A DNA stretch of 12,185 nt from a virus (IMGVR_UViG_2541047898_000011), one strand, 5' to 3'. Counted from the stretch's first letter, positions 7,118 to 11,142 are shown. Notes: generated by a model not told the origin, from the letters alone. Numbers and translations: made by a program.

Positions 7118-7810
7118 TTAATTATGTCTCTTAAGGGTTTGCGACTGACTGATTAAGACCTTTCCAAAGACCATGAATCGGTGTTCGTTTTCGCTAGTAA
7201 TTCCCCATTCACGGTAAATCTGGTTATCAGAAATCACCAGCAGTTTGTCAGGAATCATTTGAAGTCTTTTAACGTATATTTTGTCATCAAAACCAAAGAC
7301 ATATATACCATCACCATCAAACTGATTGATGCTGACATCAACGAAGATGAGATCTCCTGGCTCAATGGTTGGACACATACTGTCCCCACGAACGTTGATA
7401 ACTTTGATGTGATTGGCTGGTCGTCCGCCGAACATTGATACAGCATTATCAGTTCTGTATTCGATGGCATGAATCACATCAATGACATCACCGCCCTGGA
7501 TAAGGCCATTTCCCGCACTGGCACTGATATCCAACATTTCAATACGGAACACATCCTTCACCTGCGCAACATCCTCATCATTACTGTTTTTATATACAGT
7601 ATTACTTTTGAGGGCAGAGGTAAAGAGATCAGCAATATCAACACCTAAGCTCTTGGCAATATTACTCAGTGTTTGTTCGGTAAATTGTTTCTGCTTACCC
7701 GTTTCTAAGCGCGAGATGTTCGCCGCATCTACTCCTATTGCTTCAGCGAGATCGGCGATTTTCATGTTCTTCGCTTGGCGAAGTTGTCTGACTCGTTTTC
7801 CTATGTTCAT
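7118..7810 (-). CDS. cI-like prophage repressor (HTH XRE domain plus S24 LexA-type peptidase domain)
   Basis: 230 aa; N-terminal HTH (IADLAEAIGVDAANISRLETG), Ala-Gly site in SASAGNG, GDSM serine and a downstream lysine (VKRLQ); no SD before the ATG, consistent with a leaderless transcript. Confidence 0.85.
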   Translation of the reverse strand: MNIGKRVRQLRQAKNMKIADLAEAIGVDAANISRLETGKQKQFTEQTLSNIAKSLGVDIADLFTSALKSNTVYKNSNDEDVAQVKDVFRIEMLDISASAGNGLIQGGDVIDVIHAIEYRTDNAVSMFGGRPANHIKVINVRGDSMCPTIEPGDLIFVDVSINQFDGDGIYVFGFDDKIYVKRLQMIPDKLLVISDNQIYREWGITSENEHRFMVFGKVLISQSQTLKRHN

Positions 7811-7907: not shown

Positions 7908-8168
7908 ATGCAATCACCATTACGAAATGTGCGTAAGGCGCATGGTTTCACTTTGCAGCATGTTGCTGCGGGTGTTCAAGTCAATCCAGCGACGTTGAGT
8001 CGTATTGAGAGGCTGGAGCAGATTCCATCTATCGAGCTTGCAGAACGTTTAGCCAATTTTTTTAAGGGTGAAATCAGCGAAATGCAGATTCTTTATCCGG
8101 CACGTTTTCAATCTAGCCAAAACCAGAATGGGTTTAAACCACAGGAACAGGAGGTGAACCGTGGGTAA
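7908..8168 (+). CDS. Cro-like HTH (XRE family) regulator
   Basis: 86 aa; HTH FTLQHVAAGVQVNPATLSRIE; first gene divergent from the repressor. Confidence 0.7.
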   Translation: MQSPLRNVRKAHGFTLQHVAAGVQVNPATLSRIERLEQIPSIELAERLANFFKGEISEMQILYPARFQSSQNQNGFKPQEQEVNRG

Positions 8169-8712
8169 GCATCACTGGAAAATAGAAAAACAGCCTGAGT
8201 GGTACGTGAAAGCTGTCAGAAAAACTATCGCGGCGTTGCCGGGTGGTTACGCTGAAGCGGCTGATTGGCTCGATGTAACAGAAAACGCTTTATTCAACCG
8301 CCTTCGTGCAGATGGCGATCAGATTTTCCCGCTGGGATGGGCAATGGTTTTACAGCGTGCTGGTGGCACTCACTTCATTGCTGATGCTGTGGCGCAGTCT
8401 GCAAATGGCGTATTTGTGTCTCTTCCTGACATCGAGGATGTGGACAACGCCGATATCAACCAACGCCTGCTGGAGGTCATTGAACAGATCGGCAGTTATT
8501 CAAAACAGATTCGTTCAGCAATTGAAGACGGTGTAGTGGAACCGCATGAGAAGACAGCAATTAACGATGAGCTGTACCTCTCAATTTCGAAGCTGCAGGA
8601 GCATGCAGCACTGGTCTACAAAATCTTTTGCGTTTCAGAAAGTAGTGACGCCCGCGAGTGTGCAGCTCCGGGCGCCGTGGCGTGTCGTGACTGTGGAGAA
8701 ACTAACGCATGA
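8161..8712 (+). CDS. CII-like lysogeny regulator (phage 186 CII / CP76-type, YdaT-like)
   Basis: 183 aa; GTG start with AGGAGG at 6 nt; position after cro; architecture resembles 186-type CII as I recall it. Confidence 0.5.
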
Positions 8713-9047
8713 ACAGTTTAACAACACACTACCGTCGCTCGCAACTGATTGCGCTTCCTGTACCGGGTGGAAAAGCGAAGGTGGAGTATTGCTATGCAGT
8801 GAATGTACCAGGTGACAGGGAAATTGTAACCCACAGCTTTGCAGAGTGGGCTGTGGGTGATTTCAACCGGCAGAAGGAGACAGTCCTTTGCGACAAGTTA
8901 ACCGCTGGTTCAAAGATCACTACGGAGTGCCCGTCAGAGTCATTCGTTGGGAACCGGAAACACAACGGGTTATCTACCTCCGCGAAGGCTATGAGCATGA
9001 GTGCTTCAGCCCGCTCGAACAGTTTCGTCGTAAATTCAGGGAAATAG
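8709..9047 (+). CDS. Hypothetical ORF translationally coupled to the CII-like gene; C-terminal half doubtful
   Basis: ATGA overlap with the upstream stop; N-terminal 55 aa protein-like, C-terminal part Ser/Ala-rich and low-complexity; a different frame looks more protein-like from 8861. Confidence 0.3.
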
Positions 9048-9067
9048 AGGTCGGTCATGAGCACTAA
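8888..9067 (+). CDS. Candidate small protein in an alternative frame (TTG start), coupled to the replication gene
   Basis: AAGGAG at 8874-8879, 8 nt spacer, TTG at 8888; reads [40 protein letters not shown]...; stop at 9065-9067 overlaps the replication gene ATG at 9057. Confidence 0.3.
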
Positions 9068-9998
9068 ATTAACCGGCTATGTATGGGATGGTTGCGCAGC
9101 GTCAGGCATGAAATTATCCAGCGTGGCAATTATGGCCCGCCTGGCTGATTTCAGTAATGACGAAGGTGTGTGCTGGCCATCAATTGAAACCATTGCCCGC
9201 CAGATTGGCGCGGGGATGAGTACCGTCAGAACGGCTATCGCACGGCTGGAAGCAGAAGGCTGGTTAACGCGTAAGGCGCGTCGCCAGGGTAACCGCAATG
9301 CGTCGAATGTTTATCAGCTTAACGTTGCGAAGCTTCAGGCAGCGGCATTTTCTCAACTGTCAGATTCTGACCCGTCAAAATCTGACGCATCAAAATCTGA
9401 CCCGTCAAAATTTGATGCGTCGAAATCTGGCAAAAAAGCGGGTTTTCACCCGTCAGAATCTGGCGGGGATCCGTCAGTAAAATCAAAACATGATCCGTCA
9501 GATAAAAAACCTTCTCGTCCGGACGCTTCGCAACCGGACACGCAGACGGCTGAACAGGATTTTTTAACTCGCCATCCTGATGCGGTTGTATTCAGCCCTA
9601 AAAAACGCCAGTGGGGGACGCAGGATGATTTGACCTGCGCACAGTGGCTCTGGAAAAAAATCATCGCCCTGTACGAGCAGGCAGCCGAATGTGACGGCGA
9701 GGTGGTTCGTCCCAAAGAACCGAACTGGACAGCCTGGGCAAACGAAATTCGCCTGATGTGTGTGCAGGATGGTCGTACTCACAAACAAATCTGCGAGATG
9801 TACAGCCGCGTCAGCCGCGATCCGTTCTGGTGCCGTAACGTGCTCAGCCCGTCGAAGCTGCGGGAAAAATGGGATGAGCTTTCCCTGCGCTTATCGCCGT
9901 CCGTCAGCACATACACAGAAAAACGTGAAGATCCGTACTTCAAATCCAGTTACGACAACGTGGACTACAGCCAGATCCCGGCAGGATTCAGGGGGTGA
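9057..9998 (+). CDS. Replication initiator, lambda O-like (N-terminal winged HTH, iteron-encoded linker, C-terminal domain)
   Basis: 313 aa; N-terminal HTH; internal SDPSKSDASKSDPSKFDASKS linker encoded by tandem 15 bp DNA repeats; position after cII. Confidence 0.65.
   Translation: MSTKLTGYVWDGCAASGMKLSSVAIMARLADFSNDEGVCWPSIETIARQIGAGMSTVRTAIARLEAEGWLTRKARRQGNRNASNVYQLNVAKLQAAAFSQLSDSDPSKSDASKSDPSKFDASKSGKKAGFHPSESGGDPSVKSKHDPSDKKPSRPDASQPDTQTAEQDFLTRHPDAVVFSPKKRQWGTQDDLTCAQWLWKKIIALYEQAAECDGEVVRPKEPNWTAWANEIRLMCVQDGRTHKQICEMYSRVSRDPFWCRNVLSPSKLREKWDELSLRLSPSVSTYTEKREDPYFKSSYDNVDYSQIPAGFRG
9361..9510. repeat. Putative origin of replication: four 15 bp iterons plus CCGTCAG-containing repeats inside the initiator gene
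   Basis: TCTGACCCGTCAAAA (9366-9380), TCTGACGCATCAAAA (9381-9395), TCTGACCCGTCAAAA (9396-9410), TTTGATGCGTCGAAA (9411-9425); cagattctga at 9361-9370 recurs inverted at 9454-9463. Confidence 0.55.
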
Positions 9999-10489
9999 TC
10001 ATGAGTCTTTTGAATGAAGTTCAGAAATTCATTGAAGCCCATCCGGGGTGTACTTCCGGAGACATTGCGGATGCTTTTGCAGGTTACTCACGGCAGCGCG
10101 TTCTGCAGTCAGCAAGCAAGTTACGTCAGAGTGGGCGTGTGGCTCACCGTTGTGAAGGAGATACACGCAGACATTTCCCGCGCCTGACTGAGAGAGCGCA
10201 GGAACCGGAACCACAACCAGTTCGTGAAACCAGACCTGTGCGCAATTTCTATGTCGGCACTAACGACCCCCGGGTGATTTTGTGCCTGACCCGCCAGGCT
10301 GAAGAACTGGAGTCCAGGGGCTTATACCGTCGTGCTGCAACGGTGTGGATGGCGGCATTCCGTGAAAGCCACTCCCAGCCAGAACGAAACAATTTTCTGG
10401 CGCGTCGTGAACGGTGTTTACGGAAAAGCAGTAAGCGGGCTGCATCAGGTGAAGAGTGGTATCTCTCAGGGAATTACGTGGGGGCTTAA
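9995..10489 (+). CDS. Phage protein with N-terminal winged-helix-like region and C-terminal PerC-like motif
   Basis: 164 aa; C-terminal LE..G.YRRAA..W...R......RR..CL pattern resembles PerC/Pch regulators as I recall them; ATGA coupling with the replication gene. Confidence 0.4.
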   Translation: MIMSLLNEVQKFIEAHPGCTSGDIADAFAGYSRQRVLQSASKLRQSGRVAHRCEGDTRRHFPRLTERAQEPEPQPVRETRPVRNFYVGTNDPRVILCLTRQAEELESRGLYRRAATVWMAAFRESHSQPERNNFLARRERCLRKSSKRAASGEEWYLSGNYVGA

Positions 10490-11142
10490 TGAGTAATAAA
10501 TATTGCCAGGCGCTGGCGGAACTGCGGAACAAACCAGCCCATGAACTGAAGGAAGTGGGCGATCAGTGGCGCACGCCGGACAACATTTTCTGGGGAATTA
10601 ACACCCTGTTTGGCCCGTTTGTTCTGGATCTGTTCACTGACGGTGATAACGCCAAATGTGCTGCGTATTACACGGCGGAAGACAACGCGCTGGCGCATGA
10701 CTGGTCAGAACGCCTTGCGGAGCTTAAAGGTGCTGCCTTTGGTAATCCCCCATACAGCCGCGCCAGTCAGCATGAGGGGCAATACATCACCGGCATGCGT
10801 TACATCATGAAGCATGCCAGTGCCATGCGTGATAAAGGCGGGCGCTATGTTTTCCTGATCAAAGCTGCCACCAGCGAAGTGTGGTGGCCGGAAGATGCAG
10901 ATCATATTGCTTTTATTCGCGGGCGTATTGGTTTTGAACTGCCTGCCTGGTTTATCCCGAAGGATGAGAAGCAGGTGCCGACAGGCGCTTTCTTCGCTGG
11001 TGCTATTGCTGTTTTCGACAAGACCTGGAAGGGACCGGCAATCAGCTACATCGGGCGCGATGAACTTGAGTCATGTGGTGAGGCCTTTCTGGCGCAGGTT
11101 CGCCAGCAGGCAGAAAAACTGGTCAGGGAGATGGCGGCATGA
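10489..11142 (+). CDS. Phage Dam-type DNA N6-adenine methyltransferase
   Basis: Motif IV NPPY (GAAFGNPPYSR); preferred start ATG at 10489 (MSNKY) overlapping the upstream stop as TAATG; ORF track gives 10456-11142. Confidence 0.7.
   Translation: MSNKYCQALAELRNKPAHELKEVGDQWRTPDNIFWGINTLFGPFVLDLFTDGDNAKCAAYYTAEDNALAHDWSERLAELKGAAFGNPPYSRASQHEGQYITGMRYIMKHASAMRDKGGRYVFLIKAATSEVWWPEDADHIAFIRGRIGFELPAWFIPKDEKQVPTGAFFAGAIAVFDKTWKGPAISYIGRDELESCGEAFLAQVRQQAEKLVREMAA

Follow-up and report, generated by a model that had tools for sequence, protein, structure and literature searches.

The region between ymfL and the replication gene of an e14/SfII-type lambdoid prophage most likely contains two overlapping genes, ymfM and a DUF4222 gene nested out of frame in its 3' half, with the overlapping tail of ymfM kept open by selection (probability about 0.85). 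As we read the locus, ymfM would start by ATGA coupling to ymfL and encode a conserved core of ~53 residues (hereafter N-core), and DUF4222 would start inside ymfM at its own AAGGAG and TTG. We infer the translation of both frames from how they evolve. To explain the discontinuity in reading frame at this position, the first-pass annotation had offered either a frameshifted gene or an overlap of two genes, and the overlap stood. In contrast, frameshift mutation, sequencing error, and programmed shift were all rejected because the two-frame arrangement is conserved, its parts occur as separate genes elsewhere, and there is no slippery site.

The window, i.e., the whole 12,185-nucleotide stretch of viral DNA that was analysed (IMGVR_UViG_2541047898_000011), is the immunity/replication (early-right) region of this type of prophage. 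Its relevant features are, in order:

7118-7810, minus strand: cI-like repressor
7908-8168: cro-like gene
8161-8712, plus strand: ymfL, CII/CP76-like regulator (Pfam Phage_CP76, E = 3e-13)
8695-8698, plus strand: GGAG, Shine-Dalgarno of ymfM, 10 nt before ATG 8709
8709-9047, plus strand: ymfM ORF, 112 aa (from the ORF list, a phrog_1170 match, and the K-12 annotation)
8709-8867, plus strand: YmfM N-core, residues 1 to ~53, ending ...EWAVGDF, under protein-level purifying selection
8874-8879, plus strand: AAGGAG, Shine-Dalgarno of the DUF4222 gene, embedded in ymfM codons
8888-9067, plus strand: DUF4222 gene, 59 aa, TTG start (PF13973)
8889-9044, plus strand: ymfM tail, 52 codons, in the +1 frame of DUF4222, with stop avoidance
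9045-9050, plus strand: TAGAGG, the ymfM stop TAG fused to the GAGG Shine-Dalgarno of the replication gene, 9 nt before ATG 9057
9057-9998, plus strand: O-like replication initiator gene (Pfam HTH_36, E = 4e-11)
3' of the replication gene: PerC-family gene, then Dam methylase

Assignment of the flanking genes was supported by profile scores and by related records. The ymfL product scored 169.6 bits against NCBIfam phage_reg_YmfL (cutoff 90), and the counterpart of 9057-9998 is named 'DNA replication protein O' in phage records. The ymfM gene is the same gene as K-12 e14 ymfM (b1148, SfiC+), having 112 aa, DNA 98.9% identical to K-12 e14 strains, and the same neighbours in the order ymfL-ymfM-replication gene. 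Shigella phages SfII and SfIV, as well as several induced E. coli phages, matched positions 8600-9200 at 97-99% identity. The 8709-9067 stretch was present in 2,009 of 5,426 complete E. coli genomes (~37%), K-12 e14 included. An identical two-frame arrangement was found in 2,005 of the 5,426 and in independent phage isolates, and the arrangement also occurs in diverged Enterobacteriaceae phage lineages.

The start of ymfM at 8709 shares ATGA (8709-8712) with the TGA stop of ymfL, a junction already read directly in the sequence by the first-pass annotation, and alignment of diverged loci revealed that the GGAGAAA...GCATGA block is kept. The family phrog_1170 covers residues 1-112 of 112 (E = 4e-70). 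The low-complexity second half that had been described for this ORF is present as a serine-rich stretch, with 11 Ser among the last 52 residues. The N-core is a true family with Q12, P17, G20, and Y29 invariant in the family alignment, and its homologues occur as stand-alone genes of 59-78 aa. Divergent homologues fell into two length classes, ~60-78 aa versus 111-117 aa, the latter having Ser/Thr-rich tails that were highly dissimilar to one another. A contig scan with a narrowed N-core alignment returned only 8 loci. A structure model of the N-core (pLDDT 75.7) had three strands and one helix, and this model had no significant match. Separately, N-core residues 19-50 gave multi-stretch phmmer matches to giant repeat-domain proteins, whose repeats were Listeria-Bacteroides (Flg_new, PF09479) in P0167 and P0184 and DUF7507 in P0185 and P0192. 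These matches probably reflect weak similarity amplified by repeats.

Relative to ymfM, in whose 3' half it is nested, the DUF4222 gene occupies the -1 frame. Its frame is open from 8861, directly after TGA 8858-8860, and its TAA stop at 9065-9067 lies within the start of the replication gene, giving an 11-nt overlap with ATG 9057. The AAGGAG and the TTG at 8888, the frame open from about 8861, and the end overlapping the replication gene had all been noted before, and each was found again. That the second frame reads as a convincing protein was borne out by a match to PF13973 well outside the range of chance (67.3 bits vs. a Pfam gathering threshold of 27, E = 8.6e-19), and searching the 59-aa product on its own recovered the full-length domain (residues 2-53 aligned to profile positions 3-52 of 53). 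AAGGAG at 8874-8879 was invariant in 97 close homologues, and all diverged lineages had a purine-rich Shine-Dalgarno-like motif 7-12 nt 5' of the DUF4222 start. Across Enterobacteriaceae, DUF4222 proteins are stand-alone, 59-70 aa long, and have N-termini aligned on the same Met. The aligned position of the window's TTG is usually ATG elsewhere, with GTG also seen. Taken from these comparisons, the DUF4222 gene is expected to initiate independently of ymfM.

Two further observations concern the sequence around this start. The frame-2 TGA at 8858-8860 is polymorphic, with its T replaced by G, C, or A in 19 of 103 close sequences. At 8873-8889, the Shine-Dalgarno region (GAAGGA) can pair with a UCCUUU that overlaps the TTG, forming a 6-bp hairpin. 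We considered this hairpin as a conserved coupling device that sequesters the Shine-Dalgarno and rejected it, as only e14-type sequences have the hairpin.

To locate where each frame is constrained, we drew on IMG/VR and the annotated records for 102 distinct close homologues and analysed 97 of them, leaving out five that were truncated or mosaic. There was no indel in 8709-9047 across the 102 unique sequences. At 8709-8887, third positions of the ymfM frame took 18 of 26 variant codon changes, and the variants in this frame were 19 synonymous versus 7 nonsynonymous. At 8888-9044, it was third positions of the DUF4222 frame that took most changes (16 of 20), with 15 synonymous versus 5 nonsynonymous in that frame. 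The same changes fell on second positions of the ymfM frame, were 3 synonymous versus 18 nonsynonymous there, and included common radical ones (C>Y, G>E/V). Constraint therefore switches frame between 8882 and 8892, i.e., at the TTG. By this pattern the N-core reads clearly as coding, and the DUF4222 protein is under strong purifying selection. The first-pass annotation had named conservation confined to the frame of 8709-9047 as the case in which the second frame would be an artefact; from 8888 onward we found the DUF4222 frame constrained instead.

DUF4222 shows no drop in synonymous variation within the overlap, with 16 variable third positions in 52 overlap codons compared with 18 in 59 N-core codons. 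Because of this, the amino acid sequence of the ymfM tail is taken to be unconstrained. The second half of ymfM had been implied to be meaningless, which holds for its amino acids and fails for its stop codons: as described below, stops are clearly selected against and the position of the terminal stop is conserved.

We retrieved DNA for divergent N-core homologues and for two further DUF4222 subfamilies. The ymfM frame was stop-free over DUF4222 codons 1-52 in 69 of 69 distinct overlapped DUF4222 genes, which form 15 clusters below 88% nucleotide identity, and the same genes had 2-6 stops in the +2 frame. Third-position identity to the window was 37-60% in 12 representative lineages. Non-overlapped DUF4222 genes, all 15 of which came from one DUF4222 subfamily, had 3-5 stops in the +1 frame in 13 of 15 cases. 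Two overlapped lineages (L178 and L180) have comparably divergent DUF4222 proteins and an open frame.

Codon choice in the overlapped genes followed the risk of creating a stop. Where the next codon starts with A, Val/Leu/Ile codons ended in a purine in 0 of 258 cases, as compared to 42 of 73 in the same context of non-overlapped genes. In the safe context (pyrimidine next), 108 of 279 Val/Leu/Ile codons of overlapped genes ended in a purine, so such codons are not avoided in every context. Codon pairs 16/17 and 19/20 covaried in a stop-avoiding manner: Val16 is GTG or GTA only with Arg17 CGN and is GTC with Arg17 AGR, and Ile19 is ATA only before CGN. Random synonymous recoding kept the frame open in 4-13% of trials per cluster (5.7% for the window alone). 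Multiplying the per-lineage probabilities gives 2e-17, a value that overstates significance because the lineages are related. Taken by itself, the e14 group gave no significant lack of new stops, as ~1.7 would be expected among 16 synonymous variants. Our first reading, based on the 5.7% of recodings and the lack of amino acid constraint, was that the tail is open by chance, and it was dropped after the comparison of diverged loci. The pattern across lineages is even so hard to explain other than by selection against stops in the tail. Both frames of the overlap are thereby under selection, DUF4222 for its amino acids and ymfM for stop avoidance and stop position.

The position of the ymfM stop was likewise regular. 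In 78 of 80 unique overlapped loci the stop (9045-9047 in the window) lies exactly 9 nt 5' of the next ATG, in the form TAGAGGnnnnnnATG or TAAAGGnnnnnnATG, and in the remaining two it overlaps the next ATG by 11 nt. The 9-nt spacing holds for DUF4222 proteins of 59, 60, 61, 68, or 70 aa, whose own stops are 11-44 nt inside the next gene, and it is independent of the type of replication gene downstream. DUF4222 codon 53 is a rare ATA, TTA, or CTA in 65 of 65 sequences whose ymfM frame stops there. Lineages without the overlap have an N-core ORF that likewise ends on the start of the next gene.

Our preferred reading of these regularities is that the open tail serves mainly as a translational relay. 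Ribosomes loaded at ymfL/ymfM would be carried through DUF4222 in the ymfM frame, reading 52 further codons and ending at the conserved TAG/TAA in the Shine-Dalgarno. Having terminated there, they would reinitiate at the replication-gene ATG. The replication gene would thereby stay translationally coupled to the operon upstream of it, with DUF4222 translated via independent internal initiation. We hold such coupling as the reason for the open tail only tentatively, at somewhat under even odds. In 59-aa variants the DUF4222 stop overlaps the replication-gene start, which provides a second coupling route and could make a relay through ymfM redundant. Moreover, the Shine-Dalgarno and the coding of DUF4222 could be enough to keep TAGAGG/TAAAGG fixed, with no need for a stop.

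The main alternative to the relay keeps the two overlapping genes and has the tail open for a C-terminal extension of YmfM, i.e., a disordered Ser/Thr-rich segment that tolerates change and acts, for example, in stability or division inhibition. Disorder is typical of viral gene regions that arose by de novo overprinting, and the tails are 52-58 residues long and rich in Ser, Thr, Ala, and Gly in all overlapped lineages. Expression of the 112-aa ORF also gave filamentation (bioRxiv 10.1101/2020.11.19.390815). However, tail composition is largely dictated by DUF4222 codons, tail length tracks the distance to the start of the next gene, and an extension with a role of its own fits poorly with the unreduced synonymous variation of DUF4222. 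In addition, the N-core family needs no long tail, since stand-alone homologues carry just 6-25 residues past the GDF motif. We consider the extension possible but rather unlikely.

It is also conceivable that only DUF4222 is functional past 8888, in which case the 112-codon length of ymfM would be due to chance and the upstream product would be a short N-core peptide or none. Under that view it is unsurprising that PGAP, the annotation pipeline of NCBI, called only DUF4222 in all 60 RefSeq genomes sampled, that the amino acids of the tail vary freely, and that the 5.7% of window recodings that stay open are not very rare. Some family members (P0016, P0018, P0021, and phrog_20047) also switch to frame 1 and terminate after 63 aa. 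Chance does not account for zero stops in 69 overlapped genes versus 3-5 in non-overlapped ones, nor for stop-avoiding codons that are specific to context (0/258 vs. 108/279) and covary. Nor does it account for a conserved stop position built from rare xTA codons, and the absence of an upstream product is at odds with an N-core that is clearly coding. We therefore judge this explanation very unlikely.

A programmed -1 ribosomal frameshift near 8861-8895, as in dnaX or lambda G/GT, would instead yield a fusion of N-core and DUF4222. The required frame change is indeed -1, frame 2 is open from 8861, and an SD-like AAGGAG is just upstream, as in those systems; SD-like elements stimulate frameshifting in dnaX. 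In contrast to dnaX and lambda G/GT, the locus has an independent start codon and lacks both a slippery heptamer and a conserved stimulator. The zero-frame junction codons (8859-8897) are GAT TTC AAC CGG CAG AAG GAG ACA GTC CTT TGC GAC AAG, and there is no X XXY YYZ heptamer in the zero frame at 8861-8900. Junction sequences are unrelated across lineages and share no common slippery motif, although all keep the Shine-Dalgarno and start codon. Local RNA folding of 8840-8930 was ordinary (z = -0.72), and neither this folding nor the cross-lineage comparison revealed a conserved downstream stimulatory RNA structure. The start codon is also exactly where the DUF4222 domain begins, and third-position variation persists in the ymfM frame to 8882. 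By its sequence the locus falls outside the programmed -1 frameshift class, and we consider such a shift highly improbable.

Homologous loci also inform whether N-core and DUF4222 were ever one protein. In Citrobacter phage phiNP (L168) and a metagenomic locus (L167), ymfL is followed by an N-core gene (65-73 aa), a rha/ANT antirepressor, and DUF4222 (59-61 aa), with downstream replication-region genes following DUF4222. In Entomohabitans (L165) and Atlantibacter (L173) prophages, the N-core gene ends on the replication-gene start without DUF4222. As a separate observation, some N-core ORFs of 77-78 aa (Entomohabitans L165 2501-2737, P0170, and P0173) resemble internal deletions of the overlap, in which the first ~17 nt after the position of the DUF4222 start and the final codons ahead of the replication ATG are retained and the DUF4222 body is missing. 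Alignment in search of a single continuous ORF, as the first-pass annotation had suggested, recovered the two-frame form in diverged lineages and one in-frame fusion, a metagenomic protein of 102 aa (P0007) in which YmfM residues 1-57 are joined to DUF4222 from about residue 15. This fusion is what would be expected if an ancestral gene had been broken by a frameshift mutation or sequencing error, but it is a single deletion variant, and the chance that the true product is an in-frame N-core-DUF4222 fusion is close to nil given that 2,005 E. coli genomes, phage isolates, and diverged lineages share the two-frame arrangement, that the 102 close homologues lack indels, that the two parts are separate in phiNP and L167, and that DUF4222 proteins stand alone at 59-70 aa with the same Met start.

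Existing annotations of this locus disagree. PGAP calls only DUF4222 and leaves 8713-8887 blank, so that 175 nt of conserved coding sequence go without annotation. Only ymfM appears in the curated K-12 record and in many phage records, and the K-12 record (b1148) describes it as 'cell division inhibitor YmfM'. The K-12 record thus omits the nested DUF4222 ORF, which is intact in K-12 at 1204001-1204180 of NC_000913.3. A locus in ~37% of complete E. coli genomes, K-12 included, therefore carries two mutually exclusive annotations, and the comparative evidence indicates that both genes are real.

The SfiC/YmfM division block has been regarded as assigned since 2021. The ymfM gene was identified as the SfiC+ division inhibitor with a cloned ORF on pBAD24 and a deletion, and Z rings fail to form when the cloned ORF is expressed (bioRxiv 10.1101/2020.11.19.390815). 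The clone from the original screen contained ymfL(142-185), ymfM, and ymfN(1-92) (PMC3614548). By coordinates, the ORF cloned in pBAD24 takes in AAGGAG, TTG, and, with DUF4222 codons 1-53, the entire Pfam domain, and a deletion of ymfM would also remove these 53 codons. No published ymfM construct is free of the DUF4222 gene and its ribosome-binding site, and the deletions take them away as well. Since clones and deletions include DUF4222 too, assignment of the phenotype to the 112-aa protein is not exclusive, and identifying the product behind SOS-linked filamentation still needs genetic separation of ymfM and DUF4222. We regard as doubtful the joint proposition that selection acts on the 3' half of ymfM for its translation and not for its coding content, as a 52-codon 'conveyor' taking ribosomes through another gene to the replication-gene start, and that the SfiC/YmfM block may be caused by or require the nested, unannotated DUF4222 or the 53-residue N-core alone, not the 112-aa protein.

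Literature searches found no paper mentioning a gene nested in ymfM, nor ribosome-profiling data on the nested gene. The DUF4222/ymfM pair, its stop-avoidance signature, and the consequence for YmfM/SfiC appear not to have been described previously; out-of-frame nested phage genes and translational coupling are already known kinds. The locus would be a clean natural case of an overlapped frame that is selected only against stop codons. This pattern bears on the detection of overlapping genes and on how translational coupling shapes phage operons.

Several known systems resemble the arrangement in part. The nested product shares its full-length domain and 59-aa stand-alone size with Pfam DUF4222 proteins of enterobacterial prophages, whose genes occupy the same place, directly 5' of and overlapping the replication gene. 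Lambda Rz/Rz1 and phiX174 D/E are out-of-frame nested phage genes in which, as here, the nested gene has its own Shine-Dalgarno and start in another frame and both frames are open in diverged relatives. Unlike in those pairs, the nested gene here appears to bear the protein constraint while the overlapped part of the host ORF shows stop avoidance only, and the nested gene ends 20 nt beyond the host ORF. The YmfM and DUF4222 products also share no known function. Termination-reinitiation coupling in phage operons occurs at ATGA and TAAnnATG junctions. Comparable junctions here are the ATGA of ymfL/ymfM, the ymfM stop 9 nt before the replication ATG and inside its Shine-Dalgarno, and the DUF4222 stop overlapping the replication-gene ATG. 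The proposed relay would differ from these cases in crossing the whole of another gene in a different frame.

Some minor features of the window were noted in passing. A 90-aa antisense ORF (8792-9064, minus strand) lies in codon register with DUF4222, and loci from Raoultella and Citrobacter have it open too (86 and 94 aa). This ORF is probably a by-product, because a stop on the antisense strand takes a TTA, CTA, or TCA codon and Leu and Ser are scarce in DUF4222. At 9345-9467, the O-like replication gene contains six direct repeats with 15-nt spacing (TCAAAATCTGACCCG-like), which are iteron-like origin candidates and also encode a DPSKSDASKSD peptide repeat. Further downstream, the PerC-family ORF at 9995-10489 and the ORF at 10456-11142 would have a 34-nt overlap in different frames if the listed GTG start of the latter is used; related phage records label the counterpart of this second ORF a DNA N-6-adenine methyltransferase.
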